A stretch of 38,269 bases of DNA from Clostridiales bacterium. Lineage in GTDB: Bacteria; Bacillota; Peptococcia; DRI-13; UBA5745. Below the pieces are notes generated by a model. It made no database searches, was not told the origin of the DNA, and saw nothing but the letters and a program-made list of their open reading frames with translations. A program made the position numbers and the translations under genes. The DNA is taken from positions 1 to 38,269 of the forward strand of contig WRMS01000001.1 of assembly GCA_009777025.1 (NCBI GenBank), written 5' to 3'. Below are positions 31,270 through 36,727 of this stretch, in pieces (the first letter of the stretch is position 1; each line of letters opens with the position of its first letter).

Positions 31270-31986
31270 TTATAATCCACTATTGTGCTGAACCTTCAAT
31301 AACTCCAAAAAATCATTAAACAAAAAAGTCATTTTATCTATGGATTTATATGTGTGGAAATGGGCGCAGTACCAACTCGAGTAAGTTAATTTATCTTCTA
31401 CAGCGTCTAACCACTCCTCGGTGCTGTTGTCAACAGACGCCTGATTGATCGATGGCAAAAAAACTTCCCTCGGGATATACCTATACGGGCAAGTGTGGGA
31501 CAAGACGATGTCCACTTTCCATCCCTCTTCTTCGAGTCGCGCCTCCACGCGATCCTTAATAACATTCGATGGCTGTTCGTCCGGCCACCAGTTCATGCCT
31601 CTGCGCAGCCTGTAGTATTTATCCACGCTGTACGCACCGCCGATGACGATGCAGCGGTTACCTTCCAAATTATAGACTTCACCGTCTCTAGCAAACAGTA
31701 GATTCGGAAACTCTGGCTCCCAATATACCGCCCCGCCGCACCATTCGATTTCCTCGTAGGTATCGATGTTCTCTGGCCGTATCTCGTGGTTGCCATGTAG
31801 GCATAGCAGTGTGATAGGCATCTTGCTGAGCTGCTCTTTCAATGCCCGGTCTTCGGGTTCACCATAATAATTAATCCCTGCATCGCCAAGAATGATGAGC
31901 ACATCATCTGTCGTACTGCCGGTAATCAAGCATAAGTCTTTAACCCGAGTAAAGTTCCTATGCGTATCCCCTGTTATATAGATCAT
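31270..31986 (-). CDS. calcineurin-like metallophosphoesterase
   Basis: Motifs ITGDTH, ILGDAG, LHGNHE, LSHT and AHFH. ATG 31986 overlaps the stop of the 60-aa ORF (ATGA). Confidence 0.8.
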   Translation of the reverse strand: MIYITGDTHRNFTRVKDLCLITGSTTDDVLIILGDAGINYYGEPEDRALKEQLSKMPITLLCLHGNHEIRPENIDTYEEIEWCGGAVYWEPEFPNLLFARDGEVYNLEGNRCIVIGGAYSVDKYYRLRRGMNWWPDEQPSNVIKDRVEARLEEEGWKVDIVLSHTCPYRYIPREVFLPSINQASVDNSTEEWLDAVEDKLTYSSWYCAHFHTYKSIDKMTFLFNDFLELLKVQHNSGL

Positions 31987-32165
31987 TTGTAGTATTCCTT
32001 TTTGAACGTATCTATAAAATTCTCCCAACCGTCAATGTCAATGAAAATCCTATTATCTTGGATGGCGACTTGCGTGTTATCTTGTGTGGCCGTACCATGC
32101 AAGTCGTAATTCATGTTATAGAAAATTACATGGAAAGCTGTCGCTGTGGAGCGGAATTTTGACAT
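31983..32165 (-). CDS. hypothetical 60-aa protein
   Basis: Fills the gap between two genes exactly: a 16-nt gap upstream and an ATGA overlap downstream, which argues for translation. No recognisable motif. Confidence 0.5.
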   Translation of the reverse strand: MSKFRSTATAFHVIFYNMNYDLHGTATQDNTQVAIQDNRIFIDIDGWENFIDTFKKEYYK

Positions 32166-32181
32166 TACTAAACATCCGGCT

Positions 32182-33726
32182 TCATTCCCCTCTCCATGAT
32201 GAATAGGATTTCTCCATCAGTTTTCTATACTTTTCATTGTTTTTATTTCGTGTGCCGAAAAATTCATCTATGCGCTTAATCGTAGGGTCATACCAATCTG
32301 CTTTCTGTTTAGCCCATTCAATCCATTGCATTTCATTTTCTGTTAAGCTAGCTTTTTTCTCCATTACTGATATATATGCTCTGATTTTACACGCGATATC
32401 GAAATCATCCGATTCATTAACAAGCGCATTGGTTTTTTCCACTTCAAGATTGTATCGATTGCGTTGGTCTTCTCTATGACGTTTTTCTTCCAAGCGCTTG
32501 AGTTCTGCGGCTTCCCGTTCTTCCCGTTGTATACGGTATTCATTTGACGCTTCATAGATAAAAATGAGTATATCTCCTAGACGTTCTTCAATGACATGGG
32601 ATTTGCTGTCACGAAGACTTTTTATATTGCCCACTGAGAAAGAGATCTTTCCATTATAAATATAGTCATATTTTCTAATGTTTGGCTGGGATGCCCATGA
32701 ATTCCTTCGTTTTTTCTCTTCATATTCTAAAAGCTGTATGTTTTCTTCCCTCGTTGGAATATGATCAATTTTATCTTTTGACTCCGAAACAGATATAGGT
32801 ACCGTTTCCCCTAGGAGAACGAATTTAAGGTCGTCTGTTAATGAACAACCTAAAGGCTCCATAGCTTTTATAAGAGCGTCAAAAATACGGCATACACGCG
32901 GTAATGAGCTTTCAGATATAGTATCTGCAAGAAATGGTGCTGTGTCTTCATTTGTTCCGAATCTTCGCTGATTTCGTTCCCGGCTTTCCTTTTTGTGCCA
33001 CTCAACTACGTTCTTCCTATGGACGATGATCTTTGCATGCATTTTGGCATTATCATCGGGCAGTCTTATTTGCATTGCTACGGAGAGTACCACAGATTTA
33101 TCCTCTACTGATAAGTAATTAAGCAATTCTTTTACAACTTGTGGCTGCGGTTCGAGATTTGTCCGTATTCCCATTTTTGAAGCAGGTTTATTGCTGTTGG
33201 GTAAGGGAGTTTGCTTTGTCGGTTTGCCTGCCTTGACTTTTGCCCAGTATCCAACGTCAGGTGTAGGAATATCCAGAGACTTACATATCTTGTGTATAGT
33301 GACATCCGAGACCATATATTGCTGTGCAACCTCAACAACCGGTTTTTCCCATACTTCTTGATATAGTTTTTCTCTGTAATATATGTTATAAATTTGTCCA
33401 TATTGCTCAATAGTTTCTACAGGATCTGCGTTTTCATCTATCGTCGGATTCTGCTGATTGTTGTCTGGCATTATGGACTCAATTGTTTTATAAATCGAAA
33501 TCATAGTGTCCGCAGGACCATCCAGCGGAATGATCTCAACGGGTTTACCAAAAGCAAGTTTTGTCCAATAACCGGTAGGTGGAATGGGGATATTGGCTGT
33601 TCTAACTTGCTTTAGTAATTGCGTATAGGGGATATCATATTCTTTTGCGACAGAAGAAGCCGACTTATCCCATATTTTTTCATAGAGTTCTTTCCGGGAA
33701 AGTGTCCCTACTAAAATGTCAACCAA
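32182..33726 (-). CDS. large uncharacterised protein: two tandem HTH-like/GYW modules plus a coiled-coil tail
   Basis: TTG 33726 lies 8 nt after AAGGAGG. The ORF-track GTG at 33771 has no RBS, and the frame stays open up to 34038 without any ATG/GTG/TTG. Internal repeats are ...LYEKIWDKS..IPIPPTGYWTKLAFGKP and ...LYQEVWEKP..IPTPDVGYWAKVKAGKP. Confidence 0.7.
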   Translation of the reverse strand: MVDILVGTLSRKELYEKIWDKSASSVAKEYDIPYTQLLKQVRTANIPIPPTGYWTKLAFGKPVEIIPLDGPADTMISIYKTIESIMPDNNQQNPTIDENADPVETIEQYGQIYNIYYREKLYQEVWEKPVVEVAQQYMVSDVTIHKICKSLDIPTPDVGYWAKVKAGKPTKQTPLPNSNKPASKMGIRTNLEPQPQVVKELLNYLSVEDKSVVLSVAMQIRLPDDNAKMHAKIIVHRKNVVEWHKKESRERNQRRFGTNEDTAPFLADTISESSLPRVCRIFDALIKAMEPLGCSLTDDLKFVLLGETVPISVSESKDKIDHIPTREENIQLLEYEEKKRRNSWASQPNIRKYDYIYNGKISFSVGNIKSLRDSKSHVIEERLGDILIFIYEASNEYRIQREEREAAELKRLEEKRHREDQRNRYNLEVEKTNALVNESDDFDIACKIRAYISVMEKKASLTENEMQWIEWAKQKADWYDPTIKRIDEFFGTRNKNNEKYRKLMEKSYSSWRGE

Positions 33727-34001
33727 TTCACCCGCCTCCTTAGCATAAGGGTCTGGCACTGCATTTGTCACTATCTTTGCGCTATTTCCGCAAGTATTAA
33801 GCAGCTTTTTCAGTAGTTTGGAAGGTGACTTTTTTCGCGATTCAGAAGAAACATTTTTCTCATTCTCATCGGTATTACCCTTTTGTTTCGGCTCAATACT
33901 ATTAGCTTCATTTTCTATCGAGGTATCCTTGTCTGATAAACCAAAAATAATATTAGATCCGGAGATTAATGTCTGAAACTGCTTTATCCCTCCTATTCCT
34001 C

Positions 34002-34319
34002 TTATTCTTTTAATAGAAAAAGCAAGTCTCGCTTCATTTCATCAAACTGTTTGATAATCATTGACAAATTATTGTCAATCGATTCAATCTGTAACTCATT
34101 GATTTTACCGTGATTGTAAGCAATAAGGCGCTCTGGAACGATGGCATAAGTCCAACTGTCTCTGTAGCGATCTTCATTATGAACGGCAAAGCCGATTGGC
34201 AGCAAATTATTTCGCATGCCAAGGGTTAGGATATTGGGAGAAATGCCGAGATAATCGGCAGCAACTTTGATCGTTATTTTCGGAAAATTACGAATTTCAT
34301 CGTCTGAATAGATTCCCAT
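34002..34319 (-). CDS. small HTH DNA-binding protein (105 aa)
   Basis: ATG 34319 lies 5 nt after AAGGAGGTGA. ITIKVAADYLGISPNILTLGMRNN reads as a helix-turn-helix. Confidence 0.7.
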   Translation of the reverse strand: MGIYSDDEIRNFPKITIKVAADYLGISPNILTLGMRNNLLPIGFAVHNEDRYRDSWTYAIVPERLIAYNHGKINELQIESIDNNLSMIIKQFDEMKRDLLFLLKE

Positions 34320-34448
34320 ACGATTCACCTCCTTTTGATAGAAAATGTGAATTGTCAAATATACACGACCTACACTTCAAACTGCCTGCCGAGCTGTATT
34401 TTATCATAATCAGAAGATATATGCGTTGGTTTCATATCGTAAACCAAA

Positions 34449-34484
34449 CAAAAAAAGGTGGCTGATATAGCCACTCGCTTTTTT
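34449..34484 (-). terminator. bidirectional intrinsic terminator (stronger on the minus strand)
   Basis: Stem gtggct/agccac (34458-34463 and 34469-34474) with a 5-nt loop. It is flanked by A8 (34449-34456) and, 4 nt after the stem, T6 (34479-34484). On the minus strand the stem runs almost directly into a U8 tract. Confidence 0.6.
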
Positions 34485-34566
34485 CATACAAAGGACTGAG
34501 GCAGGGCGACACTCCCGCATCTCCAACAAGGGTGACGGCTGCCTGTTCCGTCCTCTCAATCCCTGT
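34449..34566 (-). ncRNA. candidate roughly 115-nt sRNA or terminator-containing leader of the AT-rich operon
   Basis: On the minus strand: TTGACA (34601-34596), a 17-nt spacer, then TACAGT (34578-34573). About 115 nt with no ORF follow, containing stems gacgg/ccgtc and aggcag/ctgcct, and then the terminator above. Confidence 0.3.
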
Positions 34567-34635
34567 AGTTCAACTGTATGCTCATTTTGCTGCTATGTCA
34601 ATGGATGGAGATTTCCTTTTGCAACCATTTGTGTT

Positions 34636-34679
34636 GCCCCTATCACTACTACTAAAAACGATTTGGTAGTGATAGGGGC
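34636..34679. repeat. perfect 14-bp inverted repeat / hairpin
   Basis: gcccctatcactac (34636-34649) and gtagtgataggggc (34666-34679) separated by 16 nt. Confidence 0.8.
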
Positions 34680-34690
34680 CTTTGTAATTC

Positions 34691-36727
34691 TTGGAGCATA
34701 AACGACTAACGTGGGCTGCCGCCCACAACCCAAGCGAAGCGGCATCCCCTTGGCAGAATGCTTTGATGGGGTTAACCACCCCAAACCCCGTCGGGATTCG
34801 CGGAACATACGCGCCCATTGATACTTCGGATAGCGGATTGGGGCCGAAGGACGATGTCGCTCATCCCTTCCGCTTCGCGGCGCTGCGATTCCGCAGCGTT
34901 AGCCCCATACGGACAACGAATTCGTGTTTTAAATTAACACATCAAGTCCGTAAGGTACTACTCCGTTACTTTCGCCATACTTCCGGAACGAAAGCCAAGC
35001 TGATTGCCTGCTTACTTGTGCTGGCTGTGCTGCTTTCCGCCTGTAAGGAAAGCCCGGCGCCTGATGGAGGAAACACTTCCGGCGTCATATCGCCGAACGC
35101 GTCCGTCTCGCTGACCGGCACGGTATCTCCTTCCTCGTCTGTCTCTGACGAACGGCAAACAGAAGGATGGAATCCGGATACACGGCAGGCGGATGACAGG
35201 GCCGATCCCCGCAACGACAGAGTATCGCGAGCTGCGCTGACCGGTTCCTGGACACACTTTAGTTCCAACCAATCGACCTCGTGGGTATTTAACGAAGACG
35301 GGCGATTCGCGGGCTATCTAATCGCCCAGGCCGGCAATTATTACGATTACATGGGCTATATTTACTATCGCTCCTCATCGGCTTACAAACACCTGATGCA
35401 AGGGCGCTATGAAGTAAGCGGCGGCATTATTCGATTTTTCGACTGCCAACTTAGCACTACCATCGTTTTTGATACGGAACCCTGGCATCAGAACAATCTG
35501 AATGACGCGATGGACAACTTGCTTTTCACGCGGCTGGACGCACCTTCAAGAACGGATGATTTCACTGCGGAGTTTGAATTCATCGACGCCCGGCGCTTGC
35601 GTATCCGATTGAACCGGGGCGCGCTGGAAGAATATGATATGAATTTTAAACGAGAAACAGGCAACGCCAACGCCGATATCCCGCCACATCGTATCCCGCC
35701 GGCAGAATGGCCTGCGGTTTTCCTCTCGCCGGAAATGCCTGTGGTCGGCGACAGCAGAGGCCGAATCCGGTCTGTGTCGCAAGGTTCGGTAGAAGACCTG
35801 TCTCCCGAATACCAGTATATCTATATCAATGTAGACAGATCTTCCCAGGCGTCCATTTTGGATTATGCTGCGGAGCTAAGGAAACTGGGTTGGTCTGGGC
35901 CAAGCGAAGAGGAGATATTGATTGAGAAGCAAAAAGCCTTAGACAGCGAGCTGTCAATCGTGACAACGACGTATTCGTTTCGTTACCGTAAAGGTGTATT
36001 TGAAATCACTCTATATGTTGACGCCGAAGACGAATGGCGAATCTATTCCCATCGCGAAGCCGAAGGCTTCTGGCCATCCGAGCTATTCGGGGATGAATTC
36101 AGACCTCCGGCAAACGCTGTGTTTATAGGCGTTACGGACATGAACGCGATCCATAGGGAAGCAGAAGGCTTTTCTGCCTCGTTTGAAATCGATTTCTATC
36201 CGGGTAACCGGGAAAGTTATTTCCAAGATTTACTGTCCCGGGGCTTTGTGATCTACGACAATATGTACGGCACATTGGAGATGGCCAATCACCTGCGCAT
36301 AAACGGCAGGATGTATCAAGTCGTCATATCCCCCGGTTACTACGAAATGGCTGCCATCGGCAGCGTAACCTACCGATTGACGTATTATCCGGATATGGCC
36401 TGGTCGGACGAGTTCCCCTCGGAAACTGCCCCGCCGCCCGGTTATGAATTGTTCTGGGATTACTACGATCTCAACAGAGGCGTCGGCGTGATGAATGCCG
36501 AAGGAGACAGGGGCAATTTGAAATACTCTGTCATCGGCTTGACCCAGGCAGATCTCGATAATTATTACAACAATCTGGAACAAATGGGCTGGAGTACGAG
36601 CTGGATGGGCGACGGAAAGTCCAAGCCATTCAACTGGAATGGGGGCGAATGGTGGTTCCAGATCAGGCTTTACAGATATAGTCTCAACCTCTATACTTTT
36701 GAACTGGACTTCTGGAAAACTAATTAA
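34691..36727 (+). CDS. hypothetical lipoprotein (5' end unresolved)
   Basis: A 678-codon open frame. A credible signal peptide and lipobox (KAKLIACLLVLAVLLSAC) begins only near 34995-35044. There is no ATG/GTG/TTG between 34766 and 35018, and the upstream part of the frame runs through the repeat element. The coordinates given are the maximal ORF. Confidence 0.65.
   Translation: MEHKRLTWAAAHNPSEAASPWQNALMGLTTPNPVGIRGTYAPIDTSDSGLGPKDDVAHPFRFAALRFRSVSPIRTTNSCFKLTHQVRKVLLRYFRHTSGTKAKLIACLLVLAVLLSACKESPAPDGGNTSGVISPNASVSLTGTVSPSSSVSDERQTEGWNPDTRQADDRADPRNDRVSRAALTGSWTHFSSNQSTSWVFNEDGRFAGYLIAQAGNYYDYMGYIYYRSSSAYKHLMQGRYEVSGGIIRFFDCQLSTTIVFDTEPWHQNNLNDAMDNLLFTRLDAPSRTDDFTAEFEFIDARRLRIRLNRGALEEYDMNFKRETGNANADIPPHRIPPAEWPAVFLSPEMPVVGDSRGRIRSVSQGSVEDLSPEYQYIYINVDRSSQASILDYAAELRKLGWSGPSEEEILIEKQKALDSELSIVTTTYSFRYRKGVFEITLYVDAEDEWRIYSHREAEGFWPSELFGDEFRPPANAVFIGVTDMNAIHREAEGFSASFEIDFYPGNRESYFQDLLSRGFVIYDNMYGTLEMANHLRINGRMYQVVISPGYYEMAAIGSVTYRLTYYPDMAWSDEFPSETAPPPGYELFWDYYDLNRGVGVMNAEGDRGNLKYSVIGLTQADLDNYYNNLEQMGWSTSWMGDGKSKPFNWNGGEWWFQIRLYRYSLNLYTFELDFWKTN
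34711..34948. repeat. most complete copy of the mosaic intergenic element (modules B, G, C, D, A', E)
   Basis: B 34711-34750; G/C 34766-34880; D 34877-34903; A' 34914-34926; E 34925-34948. Each has a counterpart at 13605-13644, 5197-5268 (inverted), 9102-9128, 5096-5118/13684-13706, or 9146-9161/10865-10891. A long-range 9-bp complement gcgaagcgg (34735-34743) / ccgcttcgc (34870-34878) brackets G/C. Confidence 0.65.

Follow-up and report, generated by a model that had tools for sequence, protein, structure and literature searches.

A two-gene helix-turn-helix cassette of patchy distribution in Bacilli, Clostridia, and Negativicutes, with a candidate programmed -1 frameshift at its junction

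The contig WRMS01000001.1 of the Clostridiales bacterium assembly GCA_009777025.1 is 38,269 nucleotides (nt) long, and this whole stretch, which is an entire contig of a metagenome-assembled genome (MAG; locus tags FWH28_), is referred to here as the window. It carries a block of four open reading frames (ORFs) on the minus strand, between 31270 and 34319, all of which are present in the ORF list. They encode, in order of transcription, a small helix-turn-helix (HTH) protein (34002-34319, 105 amino acids), a large protein that we call BIG (32182-33771, 529 amino acids from the GTG at 33771, with an ENA call of 514 amino acids), a protein of 60 amino acids (31983-32165), and a metallophosphoesterase (31270-31986, 238 amino acids). 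A preliminary description of this DNA had read the four as one horizontally acquired operon. Comparison with related loci shows that only two of the genes, HTH and BIG, are inherited together, as a self-contained cassette of about 2.3 kb that is the presumed functional unit, and that a programmed -1 ribosomal frameshift probably joins HTH to BIG. The present annotation has two unrelated hypothetical genes with an unexplained gap between them.

RESULTS

HTH and BIG form the conserved unit

We fetched 92 loci encoding BIG relatives (given L numbers where they are named singly) from Bacilli, Clostridia, and Negativicutes, and searched them with the four window proteins by tblastn. The HTH gene lies directly upstream of BIG in 83 of the 92 loci. 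Identity to the window proteins is 59-86% for HTH and 33-66% for BIG, and the two identities correlate with r = 0.88 over 67 pairs. The 60-amino-acid ORF was found in none of the 92 loci and the phosphoesterase in two (L022 and L047), where it is never adjacent and lies 2-3 kb off, on opposite sides of HTH-BIG. The flanks of the pair are hypervariable: when the two nearest ORFs per side are clustered, 131 downstream ORFs give 107 clusters and 148 upstream ORFs give 110. Of 75 loci, 24 have a nearby gene after BIG that runs in the same direction, and in 25 the next gene lies on the other strand; some Paenibacillus copies have their own terminator directly after the BIG gene. Homology between unrelated loci begins 13-92 nt before the HTH ATG and ends 0-235 nt past the BIG stop, and no terminal inverted or direct repeats were found at these boundaries. 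The linkage of the pair, the variable flanks, and the sharp ends of homology define the conserved unit as the two-gene HTH-BIG cassette, whose distribution over Bacilli, Clostridia, and Negativicutes is patchy.

In the operon proposed earlier, the effector of a defence or abortive-infection system would be the phosphoesterase, with HTH as regulator and BIG as a sensor or DNA binder. Its layout was described correctly, since the four genes share a strand, BIG and the 60-amino-acid ORF are 16 nt apart, the latter and the phosphoesterase gene share an ATGA overlap, and no terminator-like sites are predicted inside the block. The phosphoesterase homologues within 8 kb of HTH-BIG in L022 and L047 also speak for it. 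The four genes do not co-occur in other genomes, however. The 60-amino-acid ORF is missing from 92/92 loci and the phosphoesterase from 90/92, many HTH-BIG copies face a convergent gene or end in a terminator of their own, the GC content of the phosphoesterase gene (0.46) is host-like and differs from that of the other three genes, and the phosphoesterase has no PADLOC match and belongs to a family of more than 7,900 members with quite different neighbours. We consider a functional four-gene operon very unlikely. The four genes may be co-transcribed in the window strain.

About 7 of 83 loci (L030, L040, L079, L080, L083, L090, and L093) carry a split or truncated BIG gene; the HTH gene is usually degraded or missing there, and the two genes seem to decay together. 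An intact BIG gene without the HTH gene occurs in L018, L053, L061, L066, and L070 and on plasmids. We considered a type II toxin-antitoxin pair and rejected it on account of these stand-alone copies and because BIG has no toxin family. Copies within one genome, as in Sporomusa and Sporobacter, are divergent and not identical.

Conservation between loci begins at the Shine-Dalgarno sequence of the HTH gene (GGAGG, 34328-34332, minus strand), within the string GGAGGTGAAxCGTATG found in most loci. This ribosome-binding string, GGAGGTGAA(A/T)CGTATG (window 34317-34332; L007 7595-7614), is nearly base-for-base constant across the three classes. The DNA upstream of it, promoters included, is unrelated between loci, and it is apparently at this string that the cassette recombines when it enters a new transcription context. 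No shared k-mers or motifs were found in the cassette flanks, and there is no conserved operator or DNA site adjoining the cassette.

A candidate -1 frameshift at the HTH-BIG junction

The 275-nt junction between HTH and BIG that had been noted earlier is not a gap. The BIG frame, which is the -1 frame of HTH, is open from 34 nt inside the HTH gene through the whole of this junction (82 codons, P(open) ~1e-3), with the GTG at 33771 as its first canonical start, and we regard the junction as most likely coding. The transframe linker (33772-34018, minus strand) is open without any ATG, GTG, or TTG and encodes SIKRIRGIGGIKQFQTLIS... followed by a low-complexity N-terminal extension that is homologous to the extension of relatives. 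At its head lies a candidate -1 slippery site, C TTT TTC (34016-34022, minus strand), which reads CTT TTT CTA (Leu-Phe-Leu, with Phe101) in the zero frame. Slippage here is predicted to give a product of 712 amino acids, consisting of HTH residues 1-101, SIKRIRGIGGIKQF..., and BIG.

The same arrangement recurs in the relatives. In 46/68 loci BIG is read in the -1 frame relative to HTH, and no stop interrupts this frame as it passes the end of the HTH gene; the first canonical start lies 8-233 nt past the HTH stop in all but one of the 46. A -1-frame peptide, F(S/Y)IKRKR(G/R)x(G/R)(G/D/E)(I/L)K(Q/L)F, starts before the HTH stop and is kept in 67 loci. Its two Arg positions hold Arg in 66/67 and 67/67 loci, encoded by AGA, CGA, CGC, CGG, and AGG, while over the same bases the zero frame of HTH varies (K/N/S/D, then E/A/G) and then terminates. 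Substitutions in the start-less stretch, counted in 12 close pairs, are distributed 22:13:45 over positions 1:2:3 of the -1-frame codons. The run T TTT at the head of the peptide is invariant in 67/67 loci. The Phe codon at the slip site is TTT in 67/67, compared with 118 TTT to 33 TTC for the other Phe codons in the same genes, and the codon before it is always CTT, GTT, or AGT though the amino acid (L/V/S) varies; Leu and Val codons at this position end in T in 61/61 cases, compared with 177/873 elsewhere (p 2e-6 for the Phe codon and p 1e-39 for the preceding codon, values that ignore phylogeny). Phe is followed by one of the usually rare codons CTA and ATA, or by TTA in six loci (class D), where it creates the canonical heptamer U UUU UUA.

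An alternative explanation is that there is no frameshift and that BIG starts at a near-cognate AUA, AUC, or AUU codon (AUG or UUG in a few loci) by termination-reinitiation at the HTH stop, with the -1 "peptide" reflecting the constraints of the ribosome-binding site and of HTH coding. Indeed, a GGAGGG string precedes the would-be start codon in most loci, an ATG is found there as an ATGA overlap in L034 and L037 and a TTG as a TTGA overlap in four loci of class C, and no stimulatory RNA structure was found. The codon that would need to be the start is, however, ATA in 32, ATC in 5, ATT in 1, TTA in 1, TTG in 4, and ATG in 2 of 45 loci, so that 39 of the 45 are without a usable canonical start; this is how the codon of a hydrophobic residue inside a protein would be expected to vary. 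Only 1 nt separates GGAGG from this codon, far from the 8-nt spacer at the HTH gene's own ribosome-binding site, and GGAGG is absent in class C. The upstream codons that keep Arg in 67/67 loci vary synonymously in the -1 frame (AGA, CGA, CGC, CGG), and the invariant T TTT, further upstream, is not needed for initiation at AUA. Reinitiation at this stop is therefore, in our view, unlikely, and a programmed -1 frameshift that joins HTH to BIG is probable.

Several points weigh against the frameshift. Most slip sites read T TTT CTA or T TTT ATA and do not follow the canonical X XXY YYZ pattern, and RNAalifold found 0 conserved pairs after the slip site. Dual coding alone could explain part of the invariance of the T run. 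The six loci with ATG or TTG at the Ile/Leu codon beside the HTH stop fit termination-reinitiation, and in 22/68 loci BIG lies outside the -1 ORF, so that a fusion is not universal. No natural in-frame HTH-BIG fusions were found among the longer database entries for HTH; candidates among these entries were rejected as artefacts of an upstream start. The frameshift is strongly indicated, by sequence and not by experiment.

In the 22 split loci, among them those of Desulfosporosinus, Sporomusa, and Lachnospiraceae, the -1 ORF runs for only 16-39 further codons (...KRKRGTRDLKLFEYAFSL...), and BIG starts from a separate ATG or TTG in another frame. The universal element is thus the transframe tail and not the fusion. 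The -1 ORF of the split lineages (L045, L050-L054, L057, L058, L064, L065, L075, L076, and L081-L092) encodes ...IKRKRGxRD(L/I)(K/R)LFEYAFSL..., and the peptide LFEYAFSL is strikingly conserved though it has no annotated gene. The window HTH gene itself stops 3-6 codons before those of its relatives (…LLKE*, window 34002-34016) in a cassette that is otherwise intact, and the base changes that shorten it also convert KRKRG to KRIRG in the -1 frame.

BIG and the small HTH protein belong to no characterised family

BIG has at least 774 close homologues, none of them named and none with Pfam domains, and a profile search gave 13,322 representative clusters at E<=1e-3. Two tandem modules of about 50 amino acids had been noticed at its N-terminus, each resembling an HTH followed by a GYW-x-K motif. 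They are 36% identical to each other (E 2e-15) and are kept in all homologues aligned. Module 1 (33541-33696, minus strand) spans residues 11-62, with the invariants R11, L14, Y15, W19 ... G52, Y53, and W54, and module 2 (33217-33375, minus strand) spans residues 118-170 and gives weak matches to HTH_6 and RWP-RK. The RWP-RK family (PF02042) scores 13.8 bits on the window BIG, below its gathering score of 29.3, and matches 24 of 59 diverse BIG homologues at E<=0.5 (best E 1.7e-6); one plasmid relative is named "RWP-RK domain-containing protein" by NCBI. These matches suggest a fold related to RWP-RK and not membership in that family, to which neither the GYW-x-K extension nor the remaining architecture of BIG belongs.

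The middle of BIG contains an alpha/beta domain (32584-32904, minus strand; residues 275-381), which AlphaFold2 models with a predicted local distance difference test (pLDDT) score of 80-90 and the topology alpha-beta-beta-beta-alpha-beta-beta. Ten residues are near-invariant in 59 homologues of 27-53% identity, namely R277, G293, E315, H322, T325, E328, D354, G359, D373, and E380. The cluster of acidic residues and His would be compatible with a metal site; no known fold or family was found for this domain in Pfam, PDB, or BFVD. It is followed by a single continuous charged helix of 74 residues (32359-32580, minus strand; residues 383-456, pLDDT ~90) with a conserved charged pattern. This prediction agrees with the charged coiled-coil tail described earlier and places it in the C-terminal third as a putative coiled-coil or dimerisation rod. 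A C-terminal Trp-rich motif, WIEWAKQKADWYDP (32284-32325, minus strand; W468-P481), is the most conserved stretch of the superfamily, A476 and P481 being invariant and W471, K475, W478, and D480 near-invariant among 59 diverse homologues.

The statement that the large protein could not be placed in a characterised family holds after homologue and structure searches. BIG has no family in Pfam, NCBIfam, or PADLOC and no relative in PDB by profile, and its AlphaFold2 model (pLDDT 78) has no Foldseek match in PDB or BFVD at E<=0.001, the sole signal being a 48-amino-acid HTH match to a viral protein with a root-mean-square deviation of 0.9. Scans of all four proteins against Pfam (2025 copy), NCBIfam (2026), PHROGs, and PADLOC (2023, PADLOC-DB v2) matched only Metallophos, phrog_1649, and phrog_6058. 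We found no description of the HTH-BIG family or of an HTH-BIG frameshift in Pfam, NCBIfam, PADLOC, or the searchable literature on RWP-RK in bacteria and phages, frameshifting in defence, and phosphoesterases as recombination directionality factors.

The small HTH protein has 878 homologues, all "hypothetical" and without a Pfam match. It matches phrog_6058 (2.4e-12) and nothing among the families of Pfam and NCBIfam or in a PDB profile search. AlphaFold2 predicts a helix-turn-helix, a beta-hairpin, and a long C-terminal helix of 30 residues, so that the protein reads as a putative winged HTH with a C-terminal helix. Foldseek against PDB returned only non-significant MerR and MarR matches (best, the MerR-family HiNmlR, E 0.18).

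Genomic neighbourhood of the cassette

Defence families were counted in the four nearest ORFs of about 75 loci, which gives a qualitative association without a background rate. The flanks contain the Pfam families AAA_21, DUF4143/AAA_14, radical SAM, ResIII, RVT_1, AbiEii, JetA, SMC_N, Vsr, N6_Mtase, HSDR_N, SocA_Panacea, and Fic. PADLOC matches there include AriA (6), PDC-S01 (8), pVip (3), AbiLi (2), Wadjet JetA/JetC (5), and several reverse-transcriptase classes; type I restriction-modification genes are also among the Pfam and PADLOC matches. Single loci have a viperin-like radical SAM protein with DUF6375, Multi_ubiq with ThiF, nSTAND3, a YobI ATPase, ParE/RelB, or a group II intron. The more distant BIG relatives of plasmids follow AbiEi/AbiEii in Mesorhizobium and ParB in Phaeobacter and precede DUF2493 in Chryseobacterium, and a relative in a Syntrophomonadaceae phage lies downstream of two serine recombinases. 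The earlier suggestion of a defence or mobile-element module thus stands insofar as the relatives of HTH-BIG sit among defence and mobile-element genes, and lacks support for the phosphoesterase as its effector.

A recombinase is found within 8 kb in 26/83 loci. Twenty of these are upstream, all co-oriented and mostly large serine recombinases, and in several loci (L011, L026, L033, and L076) the recombinase is directly adjacent. A transfer RNA (tRNA) gene at L011 (1-52) and a transfer-messenger RNA (tmRNA) gene at L026 (1-348) stand at the start of the locus, with one or more serine recombinases, HTH, and BIG downstream; they look like the integration sites of carrier elements. From such loci HTH-BIG could be taken for an accessory of large-serine-recombinase elements, that is, an excisionase-like directionality or regulatory winged HTH with a DNA-architectural partner, and the window for a remnant that lost its recombinase. 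The co-oriented recombinase upstream in 20/83 loci, the tRNA and tmRNA genes at element edges, the same gene order in the Syntrophomonadaceae phage, and the predicted topology of the HTH protein, similar to excisionase and MerR, all agree with this idea, and the window has upstream of HTH a skipping-rope RNA (see below), which normally occurs beside prophage integrases. It would fit 20-30% of loci only, however, and 57/83 have no recombinase within 8 kb. The Paenibacillus copies lie in chromosomal defence islands next to Wadjet, plasmid relatives beside ParB or AbiE have no recombinase, the window has none either, and no conserved DNA site flanks the cassette. We judge such an accessory role to be quite improbable as a general explanation.

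Other neighbours and composition of the window

The 60-amino-acid ORF has a single other copy, in the same strain, with 99.8% DNA identity, and no match among phage sequences. Its Shine-Dalgarno sequence is weak. BIG and HTH carry successive NCBI locus tags, and we found no NCBI record for the ORF; from the numbering, it was apparently not called in the NCBI annotation of the MAG. It is an orphan that does not belong to the conserved cassette and is perhaps not a genuine gene.

The phosphoesterase matches Pfam Metallophos (PF00149; 6.7e-11, 43.4 bits against a gathering score of 21.5) and phrog_1649 (1.4e-26). The preliminary description was right that it is of the calcineurin type with intact metal-binding motifs, as DxH, GD, GNHE, H, and HxH (GDTH, GDAG, GNHE, SH, and HFH) can be read in its translation. 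A PDB sequence match to RecA, the only one, was judged spurious. The family is very large (more than 7,900 matches), and its members have no constant small partner gene. Relatives occur in the relaxase/ArdC region of an integrative and conjugative element, in a PARG/GNAT (acetyltransferase) accessory array, beside an HTH_3 gene, and in the early region of an Oscillospirales phage; the closest relative from a phage is encoded in an early region, next to a repressor and not an integrase. With two occurrences in 92 loci, never adjacent, and other neighbours elsewhere, the phosphoesterase is very unlikely to be the effector partner that it had been proposed to be. It is a local neighbour or cargo, a common accessory gene of phages and conjugative elements that is unrelated to HTH-BIG. 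Its homologues at L022 (11991-12671, 62% identical) and L047 (4221-4904, 57%) lie within 8 kb of HTH-BIG in unrelated genomes, and this recurrence may reflect shared island cargo and not partnership. The directionality factor gp47 of phage Bxb1 is a calcineurin-like protein (PMC11795197). Like Bxb1 gp47 and phrog_1649, the window phosphoesterase is a small single-domain Metallophos protein of phage or mobile-element type, a likeness that comes from the protein class and not from a sequence comparison. Unlike the setting of gp47, where a cognate large serine integrase is encoded in the same element, the window contains no serine integrase or other recombinase.

The GC contents of the HTH, BIG, 60-amino-acid, and phosphoesterase genes are 0.374, 0.394, 0.383, and 0.463. 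The block had been described as AT-rich and compositionally foreign. This is borne out for the first three genes (0.374-0.394); the phosphoesterase gene, with a GC content of 0.55 at third codon positions and an overall value near that of the flanking GNAT-methyltransferase gene (0.471), is host-like. No recombinase, transposase, or tRNA gene is present in the window, in keeping with the earlier statement that no integrase, transposase, or phage structural gene accompanies the block, and no att-like repeats were found around the AT-rich island. The remaining window genes are of chromosomal type, for example, methionyl-tRNA synthetase and an MFS transporter. Searching metagenomes for an empty site with the GNAT-methyltransferase neighbour yielded relatives that are not syntenic and no empty site; a lone contig of 94% identity stops at the block boundary. 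Among the contigs L216 (a 94-98% identical strain) and L001 (an ENA contig of the same strain), one stops exactly after the GNAT-methyltransferase stop and the other ends near window 34957, breaks in the assembly to either side of the block that hint at variability between strains in this region.

A skipping-rope RNA lies upstream of the cassette

On the same strand, 135 nt upstream of HTH and outside the conserved cassette, the window carries a complete small RNA (sRNA) gene of the skipping-rope class (34458-34601, minus strand), with a promoter-like sequence at 34573-34601 (sigma-70-like, 10/12 matches), the RNA at 34493-34562, and an intrinsic terminator at 34458-34474. It matches the full length of the Rfam model RF02924 with 53.8 bits (gathering score, 36.7), and a 3' terminator is a described property of this motif (PMC5737381). 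Its GC content is 0.55, compared with the AT-rich block that starts directly after its terminator. The RNA was rejected as a third cassette component, as Rfam did not find it in 9 related loci and its core pattern is absent from 95 other loci.

We also collected 115 IMG/VR contigs (L097-L211) that match GAGGNCGGAANNGGCAGCCG. None of these viral contigs encodes BIG, the phosphoesterase, or the 60-amino-acid ORF. In 35 of them the RNA lies on the same strand and a median of 63 nt downstream of a gene of about 123 amino acids for a PBECR3 nuclease (Barnase-EndoU-ColicinE5/D-RelE-like), and XRE repressors (40 contigs), tyrosine integrases (32), and serine integrases (14) are found nearby. This linkage may be the "compelling protein association" of Weinberg et al. 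2017, and the two could form an RNA-nuclease pair. No PBECR3 gene or integrase was found in the window, where the presence of the RNA fits an AT-rich block that borders on a mobile element or came from one.

Just upstream of the sRNA promoter there is a perfect 14-nt inverted repeat, GCCCCTATCACTAC / GTAGTGATAGGGGC, with 16 nt between its arms (window 34636-34679). The 678-amino-acid ORF from the TTG at 34691 (region 34691-34990) is probably an over-extension of the lipoprotein gene, as a lipoprotein signal peptide with a lipobox (LLSAC) begins about 100 codons into it. About 430 nt between the sRNA and the lipoprotein gene would then apparently be non-coding.

DISCUSSION

In the mechanism that we propose, ribosomes translating the HTH gene would slip back one base at U UUU, four codons before the stop in the window. 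Those that do not slip would make the free 105-amino-acid HTH protein, and those that do would read SIKR(K/I)RG..IKQF.. and continue into BIG, which in the window would give the 712-amino-acid fusion. In about one third of the lineages the slip would only provide HTH with an alternative tail, possibly one that docks BIG. The long form would bring three DNA-binding modules, a dimerising rod, and possibly a metal-dependent active site to DNA. By analogy with OrfA and OrfAB of IS3, the two forms may share a DNA target, at which the short one competes with the long one or regulates it. As no motif is shared by the flanks although HTH is 59-86% conserved, this target is probably DNA in trans, either incoming or of the host, and not a local operator. 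Together with the neighbourhood, a target in trans speaks for defence, exclusion, or another mobile-element conflict as the role, more than for control of local transcription.

This architecture invites comparison with insertion sequences (IS). In IS3 and IS1, OrfA and OrfAB are made by programmed -1 ribosomal frameshifting at the slip motif A AAA AAG/C. As in these elements, the cassette has a small ORF with an HTH and a C-terminal helix, a large -1 ORF without its own start, and a candidate slip site near the end of the small ORF, which would yield a short DNA-binding protein and a long fused one. Unlike in these elements, the candidate slip motif is T TTT (C/A)TA and the large ORF is uncoupled in a third of the loci. 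The cassette might then be a cryptic IS-like element, with BIG as a new transposase or recombinase expressed in the same way; the extra HTH modules at the N-terminus of BIG, the near-invariant E315, D354, D373, and E380, and the sharp homology boundaries would suit such an element. We found, however, no terminal inverted or direct repeats, no target duplications, and no multiple identical copies of the cassette, since the copies within one genome are divergent. Conservation starts at the ribosome-binding site, only about 15 nt before the ATG. No Pfam transposase was detected in 59 BIG homologues, Foldseek gave no match to DDE (ribonuclease H-like) folds, and no DDE, HUH, or recombinase family or fold was matched. 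A cryptic IS is, to our mind, highly improbable.

Among cellular and phage genes, dnaX (tau and gamma) and the phage tail chaperones G and GT (G GGA AAG) are bacterial cases in which -1 recoding gives two isoforms. The resemblance to the cassette would lie in a short and a long protein that share an N-terminus and are made in a fixed ratio, which a slippery run within the coding region sets. The difference is that the slip sites of dnaX and G/GT are canonical heptamers aided by known stimulators, either a Shine-Dalgarno-like element or a hairpin, whereas no conserved structure was found in the cassette; the proteins are unrelated. BrxR/CapW are WYL regulators that travel with diverse defence systems. 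CapH/CapP are two-protein regulators that do the same (bioRxiv 10.1101/2022.04.27.489752). HTH-BIG is like both in combining a small HTH protein and a partner beside many different defence cassettes, and unlike them in that BIG has no protease or WYL domain, there is no conserved operator, the pair often has its own terminator, and a co-oriented, close gene downstream of BIG is seen in only 24/75 loci. Each known family that we compared with HTH-BIG fails at least one defining test, and we rate the cassette as a putative recoding-controlled DNA-binding module of mobile islands.

A module for defence or mobile-element conflict that acts on DNA in trans is the function that we favour, and some of the results do not sit easily with it. 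The case for defence comes from the neighbourhood alone, where some PADLOC matches (such as AriA and mad3) may be generic ATPases or recombinases. Against PADLOC-DB v2, the only system match of the four window proteins was mad1 for HTH, with E 0.045; BIG, the 60-amino-acid ORF, and the phosphoesterase had none. No catalytic fold was recognised in BIG, the HTH model is of low confidence (pLDDT 66), and the plasmid relatives of BIG, including the proteobacterial ones, have no small HTH partner. Even so, a two-gene cassette that is joined by a frameshift and serves in defence or mobile-element conflict is the best explanation overall, and we hold this combination to be about evenly balanced between right and wrong. 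A bolder version, which we put forward tentatively and think rather less likely, is that a conserved frameshift attaches the small winged HTH to a protein of 500-600 amino acids with RWP-RK-like modules and a coiled-coil rod, and that the resulting short and long proteins constitute a new and widespread conflict or anti-phage system of Firmicutes, in which the central domain would be a new DNA-acting enzyme and the frameshift efficiency would set its activity.

For the reading of genomes, the lesson of this locus is that tight spacing and a shared strand in one genome were no sign of a functional operon. There are hundreds of close homologues of the pair and about 13,000 BIG clusters, and both proteins still lack a name, a Pfam family, and a structure. 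If the frameshift is true, it corrects the gene models of the family, as the junction would be coding sequence, with a fusion of about 700 amino acids as the probable main product, and it adds a case of recoding beyond those of transposases, dnaX, prfB, and phage tail chaperones. With Wadjet, PARIS-like, viperin-like, Abi, and reverse-transcriptase genes and serine recombinases as constant neighbours, the cassette is a compact candidate, of 2.3 kb, for a defence or exclusion system.

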